The position numbers and the translations under genes were made by a program. From Promethearchaeota archaeon (GTDB taxonomy: Archaea > Asgardarchaeota > Lokiarchaeia > Sigyniarchaeales > SOKP01), in contig JAUWGH010000007.1 of the NCBI GenBank assembly GCA_030606485.1, positions 67,320 to 131,319 on the forward strand: 64,000 nt of DNA, in the 5' to 3' direction. A model generated the notes under the pieces. It did not search any database. It was not told where the DNA came from and worked only from the letters and a program-made list of their open reading frames with translations. Position 1 is the stretch's first letter. Each line of letters starts with the position of its first letter. Shown piece after piece: positions 4,305 through 50,101 of the stretch.

Positions 4305-7478
<3,174 letters not shown>

Positions 7479-19116: not shown

Positions 19117-21516
19117 TTGAGTACTGAAAACCCACTGCAAAGAACCATCAAGTTAAAAATGGATCTTCTTTCAAGTGATTATGATTTATGCATAGAACGT
19201 ATTAAATTCTTTACCGAAATATATAAAGAAAACAAAGAAGACCCTGAAATTTTGAAAAGAGCTAAGGCACTTGCACACACTTTAAAGAACATGACTATTT
19301 TTATTAGAAATGATGAATTGCTTGTCGGAAATGAAACGAGTAAAAATTTAGGTGAGAAAATCAATTTTGATTTACTTTCCTATGATGATAATTTTAGTAA
19401 ACGTAGTAGTATTTTAAAATTCGGAAAAAGAAAACTTCAACCTTTCCAAATTGAAGATCATGAAATTGATGATTTATTAGAGATTGTTCCATTTTGGAAG
19501 GGAAAAGCTTTATATAGTGAAATTATATATCAACGATTGGTTGATGAAAAGCTTATCAGTAGCTCTAGAAAGTTAGCTGCTGTTGTTCCTAATATCGCTA
19601 TCCAAATAGGAACTTCTGAAGGTCATTTATCTGCTGGTTATGAAAAATTACTAAAACTAGGTTATGCTGGAATAATTAAAGAAGCTGAATCATATCAAAA
19701 ACTACTAGATAAGAATGATCATAAATATCAGGAAAAAAAAGATTTTTATGAAGCTGTAAAGATATATTATAAAGCAGCCATTGATTTTTTATTACGTTAT
19801 TCAGATCTTGCTTATGTAAAAGCATATAATGAAAAAAATGACCAGCGAAAAAATGAACTCGAAACCATTGCAGAAATGATGAAAAAATTTGGTCAAAAGC
19901 CTCCTGATTCCTTCTATGAAGCGATTCAGTATATATGGTTTACTCAAAATATAATAAACATCATTTATAATAGAAGTGTTGTCGCTTTAGGAAGATTAGA
20001 TCAAATCTTATGGCCCTATTATCAAAAAGATTTAAAACAAAATAAGATTACTCACGAATTTGCTTTAGAATTAATAGAAGAATTAAATTTAAAATTAACT
20101 TGGAATGTTACAATATTACCAACAGATTATACAATGATTGCCAATGCACTAGGTCAAAACACTCAAACAATAACTATTTCTGGGATGGATAAAAATGGAG
20201 TTGATGCCACAAATGATCTTTCTTATCTCTTTCTTGAAGCTTATAGAAATCTAAAGATTTTTACTACGGACTTATCGGTAAGAATACACAAAAATACACC
20301 AAAAGAATTTTTTAAAGAAACAATAAAAGTTTTCAAATACACCTCAGGAATAGCATTTTATAATGATGATATAATAATCCCATCATTGGTTAAAGCAGGA
20401 TATTCTTTAGAAGATGCTCGAGATTATGTTTTAATTGGATGCGTTGAACCTACTGGGCAAGGTAACAGTTTTGAAGCAACTGCTCGAATGTTTCTGAATT
20501 TACCTGGTGTTTTAGAATTAACTTTGAATAATGGGTATAGTAATATGTCAAAAATTGTTGATGGATTACAGACTGGAGATCCAACAATCTTTAAGACTTT
20601 TGAAGATCTTTTAGTAGCATTTATTCATCAATTAAAATTTAATATAAATAAGTCAGTAAAAATAGCAGAAGTGGGTGATATTGAAGTAATGAAATACTTT
20701 CAAGATCCATTCATTTCAGCTACATTAAAAGGATGTATGGAGAGTGGTAAGGATTATGTTTGTGGAGGTGCAAAATATAACTTTTCTTCCATAACCGGGT
20801 ATGGTTTTGCAACATTAGTTGATTCATTATTTAACATTAAAAAAGTAGTATATGAAGAAAACCTAATATCGCTTCCTGAATTCATTCAAATTATGAATTC
20901 TAATTTTAAAGATAAAGAATTATTTCGACAAAAATTGATTAACAACTATGATAAATGGGGAAATGATAAAAAAAATATTGATTCCCTTGCAATAGAGTTA
21001 TGGGATTTATATAGTTCTGAAGTTGCTAAATATGTATCACTCAGAGGAGGTAGATATAATGCCGGAGCATATTCAATGGGTATACATGTTATGGAAGGTT
21101 TTTTTACCAGACCTACTGCTGATGGAAGAAAAGCAATGGAACCGATATCAAATAGTTTATCTCCCGTAAATAAAGTTGAAAAAAATGGAATTACAGCAAT
21201 TTTAAATTCTGTAGCAAAATTAAATTATGATTACGCTACAAATGGAGTTGCAGTTAACATTAGAATTCATCCGCAAAATCTTGAAAAGGAGGAAAACGTA
21301 GACAAATTTTATTTCTTATTAAAATCCTACTTTGATTCAGGGGGTATGCAAATTCAACTAAATGTAGTTTCAACAGAAACTCTTAAAGATGCTCAGAAAC
21401 ATCCTGAAAAATACATTGATTTAATCGTAAAAGTAGGTGGATATAATGCAACATTTATTGATCTTGGAACACCAATTCAAAATGACATAATTAACAGGTT
21501 AGAAAATATTTTTTAA
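19117..21516 (+). CDS. Glycyl radical enzyme, PFL2/dehydratase-type (pyruvate formate-lyase superfamily)
   Basis: 799 aa. The C-terminal glycyl-radical motif is VKVGGYNATFIDLGTPIQNDIINR (RVxGY type). The active site is the single-Cys LIGCVEPTGQG (GCVEP type, not the CC of true PFL). TTG start. Confidence 0.9.
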   Translation: MSTENPLQRTIKLKMDLLSSDYDLCIERIKFFTEIYKENKEDPEILKRAKALAHTLKNMTIFIRNDELLVGNETSKNLGEKINFDLLSYDDNFSKRSSILKFGKRKLQPFQIEDHEIDDLLEIVPFWKGKALYSEIIYQRLVDEKLISSSRKLAAVVPNIAIQIGTSEGHLSAGYEKLLKLGYAGIIKEAESYQKLLDKNDHKYQEKKDFYEAVKIYYKAAIDFLLRYSDLAYVKAYNEKNDQRKNELETIAEMMKKFGQKPPDSFYEAIQYIWFTQNIINIIYNRSVVALGRLDQILWPYYQKDLKQNKITHEFALELIEELNLKLTWNVTILPTDYTMIANALGQNTQTITISGMDKNGVDATNDLSYLFLEAYRNLKIFTTDLSVRIHKNTPKEFFKETIKVFKYTSGIAFYNDDIIIPSLVKAGYSLEDARDYVLIGCVEPTGQGNSFEATARMFLNLPGVLELTLNNGYSNMSKIVDGLQTGDPTIFKTFEDLLVAFIHQLKFNINKSVKIAEVGDIEVMKYFQDPFISATLKGCMESGKDYVCGGAKYNFSSITGYGFATLVDSLFNIKKVVYEENLISLPEFIQIMNSNFKDKELFRQKLINNYDKWGNDKKNIDSLAIELWDLYSSEVAKYVSLRGGRYNAGAYSMGIHVMEGFFTRPTADGRKAMEPISNSLSPVNKVEKNGITAILNSVAKLNYDYATNGVAVNIRIHPQNLEKEENVDKFYFLLKSYFDSGGMQIQLNVVSTETLKDAQKHPEKYIDLIVKVGGYNATFIDLGTPIQNDIINRLENIF

Positions 21517-21586: not shown

Positions 21587-21699
21587 TGGTGAAGGAGGGG
21601 GGATTTGAACCCCCGAAGGCCTACGCCAATGGAACCTCAGTCCATCACCTCTAATCTCTTGATCTATATCAAGATTTGACCATGCTTGGCGACTCCTTC
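21587..21699 (-). tRNA. tRNA-Leu (anticodon GAG) with a 25-nt intron in the D loop (21651-21675)
   Basis: Read on the minus strand. Acceptor GAAGGAG/CUCCUUC, T arm GGGGG-UUCAAAU-CCCCC, anticodon arm AUGGA-CUGAGGU-UCCAU, long variable arm GGC-GUAG-GCC, and discriminator A followed by a genomic CCA (21589-21587). The gene body is 110 nt, against ~85 nt expected for class II tRNA-Leu. Confidence 0.85.
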
Positions 21700-21911: not shown

Positions 21912-22919
21912 ATGTCAATAGATAGAAAAAAATTAGAAGCTTTATTAAGATGGTATTTTAATACTGTTGGAGAAGATCTTTTAGCCGCAATAATTGTAGA
22001 TAGAGAAGGATTGGTCCTAGCCTCACAATCTCGAGAAGATAAAATTGATGAGGAAATAATTGGTGGTTTATCTTCACTAATCGAGCCTGTATTGAAAAGA
22101 ATTACACAAGAATTTAGTTCAGGGAATTTTGGGACAGGAACATTTGATACTGAGGAATATAGACTAATTTTTTGCGAAGCCGGAGAGGATGCTGTTTTTA
22201 TCTCAATCTTGGATGGTATTGCAATGATTGATCCCATTTTTCCCTATGCTTATTTAGCTGCAGAAAAAATTGCAAGAATATTTGATGGCCGAGAGGTAAG
22301 TCCCGTTATACCAAATCTTTATAAAAAGGTTGGGTCAGAAATAATTACAAAAAAAGAAGGAAAACTTCAACAGATTGGCGTAAAATCGGAAGAGTATGCT
22401 TACAAATTAATTCTTGGCGGAGAAGGCGGTGTTGGTAAGACTTCTATGGTAATGAGATTTGTTCATGATAATTTCCAAGAAAGTTATAAAGCAACAATAG
22501 GCACAAACATTATGAAAAAAGAATGTGAATTTAAAGATTTGAATACAAAAGTTCGTTTCGTCGTATGGGATCTTGCAGGACAAGCTCAATTCGCTCGAGT
22601 TCGCCAAACCTATCTACGAAATTCTGAAGCAGGATTACTAGTATTTGATGTAACGAGAAGAGATACTTTTGATAAAATAAAGAAATGGCATGAAGAAATA
22701 TTAAAAGATTCGAAGAAAACATCTTTAATTTTAGTGGGAAATAAAATTGATTTGATAGACCAGAGGGATGTAACAAAAGAAGAAGCAGAAGCACTCGCAA
22801 AAGAATTATGTCTCTCATATTTTGAAACTTCTGCGAAAGATGGAACAGGAATAAATGATGCATTTGAAATGCTTGCATTCCAAATGATTGATAAATTTCT
22901 TACCGTTAAAGAAATATAA
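21912..22919 (+). CDS. Roadblock/LC7 (MglB-like) domain fused to a Rab/Ras-like small GTPase
   Basis: 335 aa. The N-terminal ~125 aa follow the Roadblock pattern (LLAAIIVDREGLVLASQ...EEIIGGLSSLIEPVLKRI...YRLIFCEAGEDAVFISIL). The C-terminal GTPase has G1 GGEGGVGKTS, G3 WDLAGQ, G4 GNKIDL and G5 ETSAKDG. Confidence 0.85.
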   Translation: MSIDRKKLEALLRWYFNTVGEDLLAAIIVDREGLVLASQSREDKIDEEIIGGLSSLIEPVLKRITQEFSSGNFGTGTFDTEEYRLIFCEAGEDAVFISILDGIAMIDPIFPYAYLAAEKIARIFDGREVSPVIPNLYKKVGSEIITKKEGKLQQIGVKSEEYAYKLILGGEGGVGKTSMVMRFVHDNFQESYKATIGTNIMKKECEFKDLNTKVRFVVWDLAGQAQFARVRQTYLRNSEAGLLVFDVTRRDTFDKIKKWHEEILKDSKKTSLILVGNKIDLIDQRDVTKEEAEALAKELCLSYFETSAKDGTGINDAFEMLAFQMIDKFLTVKEI

Positions 22920-22925
22920 CAATAA

Positions 22926-23022
22926 AGCCTCTGGAGGGAATTGAACCCTCGACCTTCTGATTACGACTTCTGTGCTTTAATACATATACATATCAGACGC
23001 TATACCACTAGGCTACAGAGGC
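22926..23022 (-). tRNA. tRNA-Thr (anticodon CGU preferred) with a 25-nt intron at position 32/33 (22967-22991)
   Basis: Read on the minus strand. Acceptor GCCUCUG/CAGAGGC, T arm GAGGG-UUCAAUU-CCCUC, anticodon stem UCUGA/UCAGA, variable AGGUC, discriminator U. 32 nt lie between the stem halves. Removing 22967-22991 leaves the loop UUCGUAA. The D stem is weak (GCCU/UAGC). The alternative canonical 37/38 reading gives UGU, which is also Thr. Confidence 0.8.
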
Positions 23023-23110
23023 ATTTTTATAAATACCTTTAAAAATTAAATAATAATAATTTTAAAGTAGTTATAAATTTTTTTTCAGAAAAGCATACTC
23101 AAGAAAAGCA

Positions 23111-24145
23111 ATGAAAAGATTAACTCTCAAAGAACTTGGGGAATCAAAAATCATTGAGATTATCGAACAATTAATTTTTGAAAAGACCGGTGAAAAAATA
23201 CAAAATGATGATGCTTTTTTTATGAATTTGAAAATTAAAGGTAATTTAAATCAAAATTACGTTGTTATTAATACCGATATGCTCGTTTCTACTTCAGATA
23301 TTCCCCAACAAATGACCCCCTTTCATATCGGACGAAAATCAATTATTATGAATATTAGTGATCTACTAGTAAAGGGAATCACACCGGTGGCAGTAATTAT
23401 CTCTTTAGGACTTCCAAATGATATGCTACTAACCGATTTCAAAGAACTTATGAAGGGAATAATTGAGACTTGTAAAAAATTTAATTTGAAGTATCTAGGA
23501 GGAGATCTTAATGAAACTAAAGAGGAGATAATTATAAACCCGACTGTATTTGGATTCGGACAAAAAAACAAAATAATCTACAGAAAAGGAATGAAAGTTG
23601 AGGATCTTTTATGCATAAATGGGTGTTTTGGTCTTACTGGAGTTGGTTTTAATATTATTTTAAATAAATTTGGAGATTTTTCTAATCTAAAGTATAAAAA
23701 AGCAATCGATTCTGTTCTTAATCCTTCGGTTAGCAAAATAGAAGGTAAAATTCTGGCAGAAAACAAATTAGCAACGTCAAGTATTGACTCTTCTGATGGA
23801 TTAGCAAAATCTCTAAAAGAACTTACTAAAGCAAATAATAATTTTGGTTTTGAAATTAACCTCAATGATGTTCCAACAGAAAACTTTGTTAAAGAATATT
23901 CTGAAAAATTTAATATCCCATTTGAAAAATTAATTTTTAATGGTGGGGAAGAATTTATCCACCTTTTCACTATTGATCCCAATAATTTTAACAAAGCCGC
24001 AAAATTAATTAAAGAAAAAAATGGTTATCTTATTCCAATAGGAAAAGTAATAGCAGAAAATAAAATTTATATTATAAAAGATGATAAAAGAAATGTCCTA
24101 AAAGATTTTGGATATGAGCACTTTATAACGGTGCATGATAAGTAA
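23111..24145 (+). CDS. thiL: Thiamine-monophosphate kinase (AIR synthase/PurM-like fold)
   Basis: 344 aa. It has the ThiL-like blocks GESKIIEIIEQL, NDDAFFM, VINTDMLVSTSDIP, IMNISDLLVKGITP, LGGDLNE and SSIDSSDGLAKSL. Other PurM-fold enzymes are not fully excluded. Confidence 0.65.
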   Translation: MKRLTLKELGESKIIEIIEQLIFEKTGEKIQNDDAFFMNLKIKGNLNQNYVVINTDMLVSTSDIPQQMTPFHIGRKSIIMNISDLLVKGITPVAVIISLGLPNDMLLTDFKELMKGIIETCKKFNLKYLGGDLNETKEEIIINPTVFGFGQKNKIIYRKGMKVEDLLCINGCFGLTGVGFNIILNKFGDFSNLKYKKAIDSVLNPSVSKIEGKILAENKLATSSIDSSDGLAKSLKELTKANNNFGFEINLNDVPTENFVKEYSEKFNIPFEKLIFNGGEEFIHLFTIDPNNFNKAAKLIKEKNGYLIPIGKVIAENKIYIIKDDKRNVLKDFGYEHFITVHDK

Positions 24146-24224
24146 AAGAATTAATAAAATTTTTATTTTATTTAATATTATATTGAAATCAAATCTATAA
24201 TTTTTAAAGAAAAAAATAATATAA

Positions 24225-24298
24225 GGGCTTGTGGCGCAGTCAGGTAGCGCAACGGGCTTTTAACCCGCAGGTCGGGGGTTCAACTCCCCTCAAGCCCG
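24225..24298 (+). tRNA. tRNA-Lys (anticodon UUU), no intron
   Basis: Acceptor GGGCUUG/CAAGCCC, D arm GCGC-AGUCAGGUA-GCGC, anticodon loop CUUUUAA, T arm GGGGG-UUCAACU-CCCCU, discriminator G. 74 nt. Confidence 0.95.
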
Positions 24299-24384
24299 TT
24301 TAAAATCATTCTTCTAATTTAATGAAAGGTTTTTACTAGGTTCATAAAATAATTAAATGTGTATAATTTAAACAATAATAAGGC

Positions 24385-25362
24385 ATGAAATTTCAAGATC
24401 AGCTCTTAATTAAATCGGAATCACCAATAAACGAAGATTATGGTTGTAGACCTGAAGATCGGGATATTGAAACATATATAAATTATGGAATTATCAATCT
24501 TGATAAACCAAAAGGACCCACAAGTCATGAAGTGGTAACTTGGGTACGAAAAATTTTAGGAGTACAAAAAACTGGGCATGGTGGGACTTTAGACCCAAAA
24601 GTAACCGGGATATTGCCTTGTGCCATAAATAAATCAACAAAAGCAGTTTCTTACTTATTAAATTCAAAAAAAGAATATGTTTGTGTCATTTTTTTTCATT
24701 CTCCCGTTTCAGAAAGACAAATAGGAAGTTTATTTTCATTATTCACAGGAAAATTATATCAAAGACCTCCCTTAAAGTCTTCTGTTGCGAGAAAATTACG
24801 GATTAGGGAGATTTATTATAATAATATTTTAGATATTCAAGGTCAATATGTTATATTTAGAGTTGGTTGCCAAGCTGGCACCTATATTAGAAAATTATGT
24901 TTTGATCTTGGAGAAGCATTATGTAGCGGAGCCCATATGGTTGAGTTAAGAAGGACCAAATCTAGTGTTTTCGAAGAAAATAAAACATTAATTACTCTAC
25001 AGAATTTAAAGGATGCAGTGACAATTTTTAGAGAGGAAGGAGATGAATATTATTTACGAAAAGTTATTCAACCTCTCGAGATAATCACTGAATCTTTTCC
25101 AAAAACAATCATTAGAGATAGTGCTGTTGATGCACTATGTCATGGAGCAAATTTAACATCTCCGGGTATCCTATATGTTGATGCCTCAATTCAAAAAGGT
25201 ACTGTAGTTGCTATCATGACCCAAAAAAAAGAATTGATTGCTTTTGGAACAGCCTTAAAAAGTGGTATGAAAATGTATAAAGCAAATTCAGGAATTATGG
25301 TAAAAATCAATAGAGTCTTTATGCAAAGAAGAACTTACCCACGATGGACGGAATTTAAATGA
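24385..25362 (+). CDS. cbf5: H/ACA RNP pseudouridine synthase Cbf5 (TruB family with C-terminal PUA domain)
   Basis: 325 aa. Contains GIINLDKPKGPTSHEVVTWVRKIL and the catalytic GHGGTLDPKVTGILP, and the C-terminal PUA region carries the SAVDALCHGANL pattern. Confidence 0.9.
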   Translation: MKFQDQLLIKSESPINEDYGCRPEDRDIETYINYGIINLDKPKGPTSHEVVTWVRKILGVQKTGHGGTLDPKVTGILPCAINKSTKAVSYLLNSKKEYVCVIFFHSPVSERQIGSLFSLFTGKLYQRPPLKSSVARKLRIREIYYNNILDIQGQYVIFRVGCQAGTYIRKLCFDLGEALCSGAHMVELRRTKSSVFEENKTLITLQNLKDAVTIFREEGDEYYLRKVIQPLEIITESFPKTIIRDSAVDALCHGANLTSPGILYVDASIQKGTVVAIMTQKKELIAFGTALKSGMKMYKANSGIMVKINRVFMQRRTYPRWTEFK

Positions 25363-25997
25363 AAGATAAAAATAATTCTCATTATTTCTCTAAATCCCCT
25401 CATTCAATCTTAAAAACTTATTCAATTTCAGAAAGTTTACGAGGACATTTGTATATATTTAAAACATCCTCGGGAATTTTTAGCCATCGAAAAATTGATC
25501 TTGGAACGAAAACATTTATAAGATACATGCAAATACCACCTAAAAATGCCTTACTTTTAGATATGGGTTGTGGATATGGACCAATAGGCATTGTATTAGC
25601 GAAAGAAAACCCAGATAGTACCATATACATGATCGATATAAACAGTAGGGCAATTTGGTGTGCTAGAGAAAATGTTAAAATTAATCGTGTTAAAAATGTC
25701 AAAATCTTTAATAATTCTTATTTTGACCTTATAAAATCTGAAAATTTAAAATTTGATGGGATTTATTCAAATCCTCCTTTAAAAAAAGGCAAAAAAGAGT
25801 TTTTAAATTTTTGTTATTTAGTCCCTAATTATTTAAAAAAAGGAGGTACTTTTCAATTTGTTATAAGGAGAACATTAGGCGCAAGTAATATATTTGAAAT
25901 TCTTTCAGATACACTTTCTAACATGGAAATAGAAATAAAATTTAAAAGAAGTGGTTATTGGATCTTTTTTTTAAAAAAAAGGTTAGGGAATGGATAA
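25359..25997 (+). CDS. Class I SAM-dependent methyltransferase (MJ0882 / RsmC-RsmD-like small-domain family)
   Basis: 212 aa. SAM motif I is LLDMGCGYGPIGI and the substrate-amine motif is YSNPPL. A 4-nt overlap with the cbf5 stop suggests co-transcription. Confidence 0.6.
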   Translation: MKDKNNSHYFSKSPHSILKTYSISESLRGHLYIFKTSSGIFSHRKIDLGTKTFIRYMQIPPKNALLLDMGCGYGPIGIVLAKENPDSTIYMIDINSRAIWCARENVKINRVKNVKIFNNSYFDLIKSENLKFDGIYSNPPLKKGKKEFLNFCYLVPNYLKKGGTFQFVIRRTLGASNIFEILSDTLSNMEIEIKFKRSGYWIFFLKKRLGNG

Positions 25998-45880: not shown

Positions 45881-47212
45881 TTAAAGTTTTGCTCCGCAAC
45901 GATTGCAAAATTTATATTCTTTAGATAAAATGACCCCACAATGCCTACAAATGATCATATCTTTTTTTTTCTTTTCACTCTTTTTTTGTTTCACTTTAGA
46001 TTTTTTCTTTTCCTGTTTTTTCTTAATTTCTTCTGCATTGGGAATTATTCTTAATGATGATTCTGAAACAGGTGAAGATGGTTCGGTTTTTTTAGATACA
46101 AATGGAATAAAACTCTTAATTGACTCAGGAACTTTCTCTGTTTCCCCTCTCTTTTTGCTAGCTTCACTTATCGACTGAAAAAAATTCCCTTTAGAAGAAT
46201 TTTCTTGAGGTAAATACTGTGTTAAGGAAGGACTTTTAGATTTTTCTAATTCTGAAAATAAAATTGGTTGAGAATCTTCTGTAGGACTTTCTGCTTTTGG
46301 TGGTTCTGACTTAGGAAATACTTGCTTAGGTGGTTTTGGTGCAGGAGATATTGGTTGGAAACCAAGAGGTGGTGGAACAGGTTTTGGAGTTTTTTCTGAA
46401 AACAGTACACCTTTGGGAGTAAAAGTTTCTTGTCCAGAAACAGCTGGAGTAATACCATCTTTTGGTACTTCTTGAGTTGGAGGCATCTCGATTGCAGGTT
46501 CAGGTTCGGGTTCAGGAACAGGGGGTGCAGAAAATGCTGACTCAGGTTCGGGTTCAGGAACAGGGGGTGCAGAAAATGCTGGCTCAGGTTCTGGTGTGGG
46601 TTCAGGAATAGAGCTTGGGTGCATTGGTACCATCCCTGGTTTTAATAATTCTTTTTTTCCTAGCAATTCTTGTGGAACTTCAAGTCCCATCATTAAATAA
46701 CCTAAAATAGCAAAACAATCACTAACATTTTCTCCCGATTTTGCACTTGTCTCTAAATAATAAAACTTAAACTTTTTTGAAAATAATTCTATATCGCTTT
46801 CACTAACTGTTCTTTCATTAATTAAATCACTTTTATTACCAATAAGTAACATGGGAATATCGGCTTTAGAATTTGATTTAATCTCTTCAATCCAATTTGG
46901 TAAATGTTCGAAACTTTCAAAATTGGTTAGATCAAAAACTAATAACGCACCTAATGCTCCTCGATAATACATTGGTCGTACAGAAGAAAAACGTTCCTGA
47001 CCTCCAGTATCCCATAATTGAAGTTTACATTTTTTAATACCCTCTAAAGTCTGAATATCTATAGTTTTTATGTGAAAGTCGACGCCTATCGTCAATTTAT
47101 AATCCTGTTCAAAGAAACCTTTAGTAAAACGGATTGTAAGTGCAGTTTTTCCTACGCCTCCATCTCCGCAGACGATAGCCTTGAAAAGAAAGTCATATTC
47201 AGTAACTGACAT
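45881..47212 (-). CDS. Rab-like small GTPase with a ~230-aa proline-rich disordered tail, a lysine patch and a C-terminal zinc ribbon
   Basis: 443 aa. G1 is GDGGVGKTA; G3 and switch II are WDTGGQERFSSVRPMYYRGALGALLVFD (very Rab-like); G4 is GNKSDL; G5 is ETSAKSG. The tail contains PEPTPEPEPAFSAPPVPEPEPESAFSAPPVPEPEPEP and ends KKSEKKKKDMIICRHCG...CNRCGAKL. Confidence 0.9.
   Translation of the reverse strand: MSVTEYDFLFKAIVCGDGGVGKTALTIRFTKGFFEQDYKLTIGVDFHIKTIDIQTLEGIKKCKLQLWDTGGQERFSSVRPMYYRGALGALLVFDLTNFESFEHLPNWIEEIKSNSKADIPMLLIGNKSDLINERTVSESDIELFSKKFKFYYLETSAKSGENVSDCFAILGYLMMGLEVPQELLGKKELLKPGMVPMHPSSIPEPTPEPEPAFSAPPVPEPEPESAFSAPPVPEPEPEPAIEMPPTQEVPKDGITPAVSGQETFTPKGVLFSEKTPKPVPPPLGFQPISPAPKPPKQVFPKSEPPKAESPTEDSQPILFSELEKSKSPSLTQYLPQENSSKGNFFQSISEASKKRGETEKVPESIKSFIPFVSKKTEPSSPVSESSLRIIPNAEEIKKKQEKKKSKVKQKKSEKKKKDMIICRHCGVILSKEYKFCNRCGAKL
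46501..46584. repeat. Tandem direct repeat, 2 x 42 nt (one A/G difference), inside the GTPase tail
   Basis: 46501-46542 and 46543-46584 both read caggttcgggttcaggaacagggggtgcagaaaatgctg[a/g]ct. Degenerate partial copies flank both sides. The unit encodes the 14-aa repeat AFSAPPVPEPEPE(S/P). Confidence 0.9.
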
Positions 47213-49144: not shown

Positions 49145-50101
49145 TTAAAAGATTATCTCTTTTACCTCTTCTAAAAGAGTTGATACATTAGATTTAATTA
49201 AATCGACATTTCCTTCTTCCCTAGTTGATTTTAAACTTAAAAATAAACGTATTGGTTTTTTCTCACCTTCTGTCGTAAGAATTAACAAGGTTTTAACATA
49301 TGTGAAATTGCCCTCGAAAAAATCTAACTTCTCATCAATTTTAACCTTATTATCTATTAACGCTTGAAAAAATTCGAGATCTTCATTTAGTTTTGGTATA
49401 ATTTTTGTATCATACTCTTTTAAATCAATTACATCCTTAAAATAATCGGAAATAATCAACCCTTTATTGGAGAATAATAAAATATAATCACAAGAGAAAT
49501 TTTCTGCGAATTCTTTTAATTTATTATCCGCACTTTCTAAAAAAAGAATCTTATTCAAAGAAGAGGATAATGCTCTTGTGAGCGAGTAAATATTATAAAT
49601 AGATGTATCGAAAAATCGAAAAGTCATCTTGGGATTTGATTTTTGAATTAAATCTACCAACATTCTCTTCCTCTCGTTAAATTCCTCAAGATTTTTATAT
49701 TCAGGATCAAACTTATGAAAACAAATATTTATCTCATTATTATACTCCAAATCTCGATAAATGTCCAATAACTCATGTAAATAATCAATTGATTCCTCAA
49801 ATCGTATTTCATCTTGAATATCAATCAAATATAATATTGCATCAGTATCCTCGAAATATATAGGACGATTTACGTAAATATTTCTAAATTTTTCTTGGCC
49901 TCCCATATCCCACAAATTTAATTGATGTTTTCTTAAAATTGTGCAAGTAGAATAATCTATCTTAATGGTTGGTTTTAAATCTTCAACCTTCTCCCAAAAA
50001 TTATATTTTTTTCTTATCGCAATTAAATAACTGGACTTTCCTGCATTATCTAGACCCGAAAGAATGATCTTATATACCTTTAAATCACTTTGTTGCACCA
50101 T
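49145..50101 (-). CDS. Arf/Rag-type small GTPase with C-terminal roadblock-like domain (Rag/Gtr-like architecture)
   Basis: 318 aa. G1 is SGLDNAGKSS (Arf-like GLDxAGK), G3 is LWDMGGQEKF, and G4 is the non-canonical FHKFD (the HKxD variant used by Rag/Gtr GTPases). The C-terminal ~140 aa (…CDYILLFSNKGLIISDYF…IRLFLSLKS…) look roadblock-like. Confidence 0.8.
   Translation of the reverse strand: MVQQSDLKVYKIILSGLDNAGKSSYLIAIRKKYNFWEKVEDLKPTIKIDYSTCTILRKHQLNLWDMGGQEKFRNIYVNRPIYFEDTDAILYLIDIQDEIRFEESIDYLHELLDIYRDLEYNNEINICFHKFDPEYKNLEEFNERKRMLVDLIQKSNPKMTFRFFDTSIYNIYSLTRALSSSLNKILFLESADNKLKEFAENFSCDYILLFSNKGLIISDYFKDVIDLKEYDTKIIPKLNEDLEFFQALIDNKVKIDEKLDFFEGNFTYVKTLLILTTEGEKKPIRLFLSLKSTREEGNVDLIKSNVSTLLEEVKEIIF

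Follow-up and report, generated by a model that had tools for sequence, protein, structure and literature searches.

The gene described here encodes, in a single polypeptide, a predicted MglB-like Roadblock domain followed by a complete Rab/Ras-like small GTPase; its orthologue is near-universal in the order to which the genome belongs, and across that order it stays linked to a gene pair encoding the pseudouridine synthase Cbf5 and an MTS-type methyltransferase. The gene lies in a window of 64,000 nucleotides, this being the whole stretch of DNA that was analysed, with a G+C content of about 28% and an archaeal 23S rRNA gene. Its open reading frame starts with ATG, codes for 335 residues and contains no internal stop codon (Table 1). 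The protein is referred to below as RG, the label used for Asgard proteins that have, encoded by one ORF, a Roadblock domain ahead of the G domain and no insert in switch II, all of which is found here. Among the NCBIfam models only TIGR00231 (small_GTP domain) matches it, and no specific model does, while relatives in UniRef carry the title "Roadblock/LAMTOR2 domain-containing protein".

The architecture as such is already known. Fusions of Roadblock domains to Ras-like GTPases in Lokiarchaeum are mentioned in a passage of Dey et al. (PMC4917890) that goes back to Klinger et al. 2016, and MK-D1 possesses 74 small GTPases, 26 of which also contain a Roadblock or longin domain (Tran et al. 2024, PMC10933270). 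In the latter study both domain orders are labelled, "RG" and "GR", with the switch-II insert occurring only in GR, and the MK-D1 proteins of RG type are listed as WP_147664993, WP_162306515, WP_147663391 and WP_147662074 (PMC10933270). The tacit suggestion of novelty in the sequence-only reading, i.e. the earlier note on this DNA, is thus unsupported, since earlier publications already describe the architecture (PMC4917890, PMC10933270), and the protein is one well-conserved orthologue of a catalogued class. It shares with the RG proteins of Lokiarchaeum and MK-D1 the domain order, the lack of a switch-II insert, of a switch-I Arg and of a prenylation motif, and the Loki-type Asgard lineage, with no difference in kind. 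What is added beyond the RG literature is the order-wide conservation, the signature motifs, the invariant start of the linker and the synteny with tRNA genes and cbf5.

Table 1. Position, strand and basis of assignment of the features discussed in the text (numbering of the window)
Feature	Position	Strand	Basis
RG gene (Roadblock-linker-Rab/Ras-like GTPase)	21912..22919, stop codon included	+	ORF, Pfam, full-length orthologues, indel-free assemblies
Roadblock/MglB-like domain (predicted), residues 1-125, α1-β1-β2-α2-β3-β4-β5-α3	21912..22286	+	Profile search, fold comparison, models
Inter-domain linker, residues 126-157	22287..22382	+	Alignment A1; pLDDT
Rab/Ras-like G domain, residues 158-335	22383..22916	+	Pfam Ras, Thor-Rab 7ezb match, Rab folds
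P-loop	22416-22445	+	Motif
DLAGQ	22569-22583	+	Motif
NKID	22740-22751	+	Motif
SAK	22830-22838	+	Motif
tRNA-Leu(GAG), CCA encoded, 25-nt D-loop insert at 21651-21675	21587..21699	-	Alignment, splicing then ARAGORN
tRNA-Thr(CGU), 25-nt intron at 32/33	22926..23022	-	Rfam tRNA 54.1 bits; ARAGORN -i
thiL (thiamine-phosphate kinase), conserved neighbour in f1	23111..24145	+	TIGR01379 196.6 bits, over cut-off
tRNA-Lys(UUU), conserved neighbour	24225..24298	+	tRNA searches, synteny
cbf5 (H/ACA pseudouridine synthase; DKCLD+TruB+PUA)	24385..25362	+	Pfam; synteny
MTS-type methyltransferase, 4-nt overlap with cbf5 stop	25359..25997	+	Synteny
Rag-like GTPase, G domain first, C-terminal extension	49145..50101	-	Gtr1_RagA Pfam match

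The GTPase half of the protein was certain from the outset, and it was the Roadblock half that needed proof, because the match of the whole protein to Pfam Robl_LC7 (PF03259; 20.9 bits at residues 25-96) falls under the cut-off of 23 bits. The N-terminal domain on its own scores 23.2 bits (cut-off 23), and an orthologue from another family of the same order (f2) reaches 25.0 bits. With residues 1-158 as query, a whole-library search recovered 135 cluster representatives, in which the domain is mostly N-terminal within proteins of 310-680 aa; 68 relatives from this search form alignment A2, 23 of which match Robl_LC7 individually, the best at 5e-20. A profile built from A2 matched, over the full domain, the PDB sequences 9jue_D (E 1.4e-14) and 7f8m_A (2e-13) as well as MglB (about 1e-4). 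An AlphaFold2 model of the domain alone, computed from the same alignment, has a pLDDT of 88.5, a pTM of 0.84 and the topology α-β-β-α-β-β-β-α, and its top Foldseek match is Thermus thermophilus MglB (1j3w_C; E 2e-8, probability 1.0, TM 0.68/0.71), followed by Roadblock3 of MK-D1 and a Roadblock protein of Thorarchaeota. Taken from the full-length model, residues 5-126 superpose on 9jue_D with a Z of 16.7 and an rmsd of 2.0 Å over 117 aa, and residues 1-129 on MglB 3t1r_A with a Z of 16.1. Two Roadblock signatures, F73-GTGTFDT80 and I86-FCEAG91, are invariant in 38 orthologues. Profile matches, fold superposition and the domain model thus agree in assigning the N-terminal 125 residues to the Roadblock fold, as the sequence-only reading had proposed. 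The closest solved relatives of the domain, the "Roadblock3 homodimer" 9jue and MglB, are homodimers.

As for the C-terminal half, Pfam Ras (PF00071) matches residues 165-325 at E 4e-50, with 169.9 bits (cut-off 21.6), and Gtr1_RagA matches at E 7e-9, within the G domain only. The closest sequence match is a Thorarchaeota Rab (7ezb, E 1.6e-39), and residues 158-331 of the full-length model superpose on Rab3C, Rab6 and Rab23 with Z values of 21-22, as against 14.6 for MglA (5ymx). All the motifs named in advance for a complete small GTPase could be located, i.e. GVGKTS within G169-S178 (GGEGGVGKTS), D220-LAGQ224, N277-KID280 and S307-AK309, so that everything that defines a Ras-superfamily small GTPase (G1, switch-I Thr, G3, G4, G5 and the fold) is present, including the catalytic Gln (Q224). 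In switch I the sequence reads YKATIG here (with A194) and YKSTIG in most orthologues, where the Thorarchaeota Rab has YKRTIG, and the switch-I Arg is therefore absent; in switch II the alignment to this Rab is free of gaps, with no insert. The Thorarchaeota Rab and the eukaryotic Rab6, Rab23 and Rab3, nearest to the G domain of RG in sequence and structure, differ from it in being single-domain proteins, the eukaryotic Rabs also in their prenylated C-terminal Cys and the Thorarchaeota Rab in its switch-I Arg. No Cys occurs among the last 30 residues of RG, which ends in ...FLTVKEI, nor in those of its orthologues, which excludes prenylation of the Rab type; the protein thus lacks the prenylatable C-terminal Cys (CC/CXC/CAAX) of the Rab family sensu stricto. 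Five motifs, RabF1-F5, are reportedly the signature of the Rab family according to Pereira-Leal and Seabra; when the orthologue alignment was inspected by eye, LVFDVT resembled RabF5, and IGTNI, RFVVW and QFARVR resembled RabF1-3 only in part.

The two halves are joined by a linker whose start, D125-G-R-x-V-S-P-V-I-P134, is invariant across the orthologues, the remainder being variable and of low pLDDT, with values below 50 at residues 131-141 of the full-length model. In alignment A1, which comprises 38 orthologues of 64-87% identity with a mean column identity of 79%, the invariant positions also include the P-loop (G169...K176-T-S), T195, D220-LAGQ224, N277-K-x-D280 and S307-AK309. Purifying conservation is strong in both domains and in the linker. 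The N-terminal domain and the linker are conserved to the same degree as the G domain, which speaks for a fusion that functions as a unit. The full-length AlphaFold2 model, obtained from a shallow alignment of orthologues, is of moderate confidence (pLDDT 70.7, pTM 0.57), and neither contacts between the domains nor their relative orientation can be read from it.

The protein, an orthologue of the RG class from a Loki-type Asgard archaeon (Promethearchaeia, the NCBI class of the Loki-type orders), is on present evidence rather probably a soluble GTPase switch dimerised through its Roadblock domain. Its Roadblock domains would pair as they do in solved Roadblock proteins, producing a dimeric platform that carries two G domains, and cycling between GTP and GDP would shift each G domain on or off this platform and thereby change the partners bound. 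Rag GTPases likewise dimerise via a fused Roadblock domain, and the platform would resemble the Rag dimer with the domain order reversed. This precedent, the dimeric solved relatives, the co-conservation of both halves and a catalytic Gln that is not accompanied by an arginine finger are what favour the Roadblock-dimerised switch. Lacking an intrinsic arginine, the protein would probably need assistance for fast hydrolysis, either from the platform or from a factor acting in trans, and since there is no lipid anchor, targeting to membranes or complexes would have to go via protein partners. Dimers mediated by the Roadblock domain have also been predicted by AF2 for MK-D1 proteins, and the same point about the switch-I Arg was made for the Roadblock-containing GTPases of MK-D1, which may need GAPs (PMC10933270). 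In a complex prediction with two Roadblock domains, the linker and G domain, GTP and Mg, the ipSAE values were 0.01 and 0.00 (mark 0.32), a result that counts neither for nor against docking. The comparison with Rag/Gtr proteins (RagA-RagC, Gtr1-Gtr2) and with the Asgard GR class is apt insofar as they too link a small GTPase covalently to a dimerising Roadblock domain; however, in these the G domain comes first and the Roadblock domain is C-terminal, the reverse of the order in RG, whose G domain is of Rab/Ras type and not of Rag/Arf type. It is plausible, as the sequence-only reading suggested, that the fusion is a switch which regulates itself or depends on dimerisation.

Self-regulation in its strictest form would mean that the Roadblock domain is a built-in GAP, acting on its own G domain as MglB acts on MglA, in cis or across the dimer, so that the switch would be self-timing and need no separate GAP. 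The best structural matches of the N-terminal domain are indeed MglB, including the MglB of the MglA complex 3t12; the co-conservation of the linker start with both domains is what would be expected if these touch each other, and in bacteria mglB adjoins mglA, Roadblock proteins being general regulators of NTPases (PMC4316618). Like RG, the MglB-MglA system of Thermus and Myxococcus (PDB 1j3w, 3t12, 6izw) brings together a Roadblock partner and a GTPase of the Ras superfamily, but RG is a covalent 1:1 fusion with a Rab/Ras-like G domain, whereas MglB is a separate dimer on one MglA. MglB contributes no catalytic residue and instead positions the switch-I Arg and the Gln of MglA itself, its dimer binding one MglA in a 2:1 geometry. 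The Gln is present in RG as Q224, but the Arg used by MglA is missing (A194, and Ser in most orthologues), and a 1:1 fusion cannot exactly copy the 2:1 arrangement. A strict MglB-like GAP acting in cis is therefore the weaker rival of the Roadblock-dimerised switch, and we regard it as unlikely.

The distribution of the orthologue was followed in a census based on GTDB sampling, in which a match at E <= 1e-90 was called an orthologue. It is found in 98 of 101 genomes of the window's own order, spread over its three families (88 of 91, 9 of 9 and 1 of 1), and is mostly single-copy; no match at this threshold occurred in about 200 genomes outside the order. Identity to the query is 94-98% within the genus, 60-67% in the rest of the family, 52-54% in family f2 and 48% in family f3. 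In other orders of the same class, three genomes hold full-length RG proteins with 34-41% identity, which is the level of paralogues, and when two further Asgard classes were sampled with 41 and 31 genomes of at least 85% completeness, every match at E <= 1e-30 covered the G domain only, a two-domain negative that rests on this query and is not proof of absence. The orthologue is thus near-universal in its own order and only paralogue-like proteins are seen elsewhere in the class, which is new. It is also present in the family that holds closed genomes. Some metagenome-assembled genomes whose titles name Hermod-, Thor-, Odin- and Hod-archaeota carry proteins of 62-66% identity and could give the impression of an Asgard-wide orthologue; these titles disagree with kinship based on GTDB and are for that reason unfit to support such a claim, and the GTDB-based census contradicts it.

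Such a distribution is of interest because Asgard small GTPases and Roadblock/longin proteins, central as they are to the debates on the origin of eukaryotic membrane trafficking and of Rag/Ragulator-type signalling, almost all lack an assigned function and are for the most part patchily distributed. The Asgard-specific core genes include three Roadblock/longin and two small-GTPase families, the distribution of Asgard GTPases being mostly patchy, and most ESP architectures have arisen by domain shuffling and are confined to Asgard archaea (Liu et al., 10.1101/2020.10.19.343400). The present analysis changes nothing as to the existence of the fusion and singles out one RG orthologue that is near-universal in a whole order. 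This near-universality, together with the constraint on both domains and the linker and with a stable genomic context, recommends it as a protein with which biochemical work on cultured Loki-type strains could sensibly begin.

Regarding the genomic context, the sequence-only reading had placed the gene between two intron-containing tRNA genes; both are real and have introns of 25 nt, with the correction that each is encoded on the minus strand. The 3' end of tRNA-Thr is 6 nt from the stop codon of RG, in convergent orientation. The insert in the D-loop of tRNA-Leu is missing from the syntenic orthologues, the tRNA-Leu(GAG) gene that relatives have at this point of the locus being intron-less, and once spliced the sequence folds as a class II tRNA-Leu. 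ARAGORN at its default settings gave tRNA-Lys only, and Rfam at the gathering threshold missed tRNA-Leu, both intron-bearing genes requiring special handling. In 80 related loci of the window's own family (f1) the order tRNA-Leu(GAG)(-), RG(+), tRNA(-), thiL(+), tRNA-Lys(UUU)(+), cbf5(+), MTS(+) is strongly kept: ThiL is found in 76, Cbf5 in 68 and MTS in 64 of the 80, counts that are limited by contig ends, and in at least 60 the RG stop codon has a T-arm and acceptor end of tRNA-Thr type at a distance of 0-6 nt. The earlier reading had refrained from claiming mobility, rightly so, since the tRNA-flanked arrangement is a stable synteny in 80 related genomes, by which a mobile-element reading of the bracketing tRNAs is ruled out.

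In f1, RG, cbf5 and MTS lie within 3.5 kb, with tRNA-Thr, thiL and tRNA-Lys between them. In family f2 the tRNA genes and thiL are missing, and in seven of nine loci RG is immediately followed, on its own strand, by cbf5-MTS, the gaps in one of them (locus L088) being 25 nt and 1 nt. That f2 keeps the three genes together without the tRNA genes and thiL marks their linkage as the deeper conserved feature. This linkage of the RG orthologue to the cbf5-methyltransferase pair across the order is likewise new, and it may go back to inherited gene order or else carry a hint of function. Were it the latter, the protein could be an order-wide housekeeping switch for RNA modification or ribosome biogenesis that operates with Cbf5 and the MTS methyltransferase, and not in membrane or cytoskeleton signalling; its Roadblock domain would be a docking platform, and the close convergent tRNA-Thr would be part of a conserved transcription-termination arrangement. 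Beyond the linkage itself, such a role would suit an orthologue that is near-universal and mostly single-copy in its order, as opposed to the patchy GTPases of other Asgard archaea (10.1101/2020.10.19.343400). However, the linkage may be mere inheritance of gene order within one order, it is not seen in the f3 locus nor in two of the nine f2 loci, and in f1 the opposite-strand tRNA genes that bracket RG mean that there it cannot be co-transcribed with cbf5; moreover, no RNA-binding feature was detected. We consider this housekeeping role quite improbable, and clearly more so than the built-in GAP. The linkage to cbf5 and the methyltransferase is the sole contextual clue to the process controlled, and it does not point to membrane traffic.

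Since roadblock and GTPase genes are frequently adjacent in prokaryotes (PMC4316618), the fusion was also checked for being an artefact, in which two neighbouring genes had been joined by an assembly or frameshift error; no support for this was found, and it is already refuted, its probability being negligible, by relatives of full coverage, by loci and genomes free of stop codons, by independent assemblies without gaps and by the conserved linker. The best 120 of 753 homologues all measure 335-340 aa at a coverage of 98-100%, and internal stop codons are absent from the gene in the 80 genomic loci and in 98 sampled genomes. In an independent metagenome assembly (X16), a single contig spans 21500-23200 with six substitutions and no gaps, and a second one (X5) contains the RG gene, again without gaps; within the gene, the differences in these assemblies amount to two synonymous changes plus H260Y and C300G, and nothing else. 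Two runs of doubtful RNA status, probably DNA, gave short contigs only, over 22713-22965, and do not bear on expression. The possibility that had been set out as damaging to the sequence-only reading, i.e. two ORFs separated by a stop codon or frameshift, is hence disposed of, and its central statement, a Roadblock domain followed by a complete small GTPase in one polypeptide, holds, both folds and all named motifs having been found.

RG is not the only protein of its kind in this genome. The assembly (3.75 Mb, 13 contigs) contains about 64 Ras-family and 17 Roadblock matches, and seven ORFs show the RG order with 36-39% identity to the query; two of these paralogues, of about 545 aa, stand in tandem and are extended at the C-terminus. 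On a tree built for this genome from 41 Rab-like G domains, the backbone of which is unresolved, the RG label changes twice, against a mean of 6.6 changes when labels were shuffled, and none of 500 shuffles gave a value as low. Constraining the RG proteins to be monophyletic costs 0.02 lnL and is not rejected (p-AU 0.446). The G-domain sequences are thus consistent with one fusion in an ancestor and later duplication.

Both architectures had been said to occur within this one window, the reverse order being attributed to a second protein (Table 1). A Rag-like protein with the G domain first is present there, on the minus strand, and this part of the statement stands; its C-terminal extension is a putative Roadblock domain, which would make the protein an example of the GR class. 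Gtr1_RagA matches it at residues 11-217 (E 4.5e-27), and it also matches RagA/Gtr1 and two solved "GTP-binding proteins", up to about residue 242.

When considered from the point of view of gene order, RG (the 335-aa Roadblock-linker-Rab/Ras-like GTPase) keeps the same partners in two families of the order Sigyniarchaeales, with one marked difference in what lies between them. In family f2 (loci L087, L088, L091-L094 and L096), RG, cbf5 and the MTS methyltransferase gene form a tight cluster on a single strand, with gaps of only 25 nt and 1 nt in L088, whereas in the window's own family (window 21912-25997) RG and cbf5 are separated by tRNA-Thr, thiL and tRNA-Lys. Since this block of three genes is present in the window's family and is not found between RG and cbf5 in f2, the comparison points to its insertion or deletion inside a conserved RG-cbf5-MTS neighbourhood. 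The glycyl-radical enzyme gene upstream of RG is outside the conserved block; it adjoins RG only in L001 and L002, the two closest relatives.

The tRNA-Lys(UUU) gene varies as well. It is intron-less in the window, as in the closest relatives, and in most other family members ARAGORN reads about 19-22 nt as an insert near position 38-40; thus, an intron has been gained or lost within one family. At the other edge of the block, the RG stop codon lies 3-6 nt from the end of the convergent tRNA-Thr gene in at least 60 of the 80 related genomes. On the minus strand this tRNA is followed directly on its 3' side by a T-rich stretch that is antisense to the final RG codons (K-E-I-stop), and a read-through RG transcript would include the antisense tRNA.

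Coordinates of RG-associated features and of other small-GTPase genes
Feature	Location	Strand	Remark
Glycyl-radical enzyme gene, upstream of RG	window 19117-21516	+	PFL-like, E 4e-169, plus Gly_radical
RG stop/tRNA-Thr junction	window 22917-23022; ~5011-5120 in loci L001-L080	tRNA on -	
tRNA-Lys(UUU)	window 24225-24298; ~6340 in L010-L068		insert in most family members other than the closest relatives
Third small-GTPase gene of the window	window 45881-47212	-	443 aa; N-terminal Ras domain, E 9e-53
Two tandem RG paralogues	G000 (window's genome):C4:134525-138035, outside the window	+	547 and 545 aa
Third long RG copy	G000:C5:75190-76788		532 aa

Records titled Hermod-, Thor-, Odin- or Hod-archaeota (loci L008, L010, L014, L018, L024, L027, L028, L030, L045, L053, L070, L073, L076 and L079) carry RG orthologues 62-66% identical, with unchanged synteny. 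Because GTDB-based kinship confines orthologues of such identity to the window's own order, the titles of these MAG records are probably out of step with phylogeny.

Many genomes of the same family (e.g., G280:C177, G272:C207 and G187:C22) encode one or two extra close RG copies, which come in two sizes: ORFs of ~680-695 aa (54-60% identity) and of ~399 aa (50-53% identity). The window's genome has neither, its next-best copy after RG being 39% identical. Each of its tandem paralogues bears a C-terminal extension of about 200 aa, and in the window's third small GTPase a middle region of ~250 aa, which has no domain assignment, separates the Ras domain from a zinc ribbon at the C terminus.

Finally, two population variants of RG occur in other metagenomes, H260Y in one run and C300G in three (window 22689 and 22809, respectively); residue 300 is usually Gly or Asn in orthologues.
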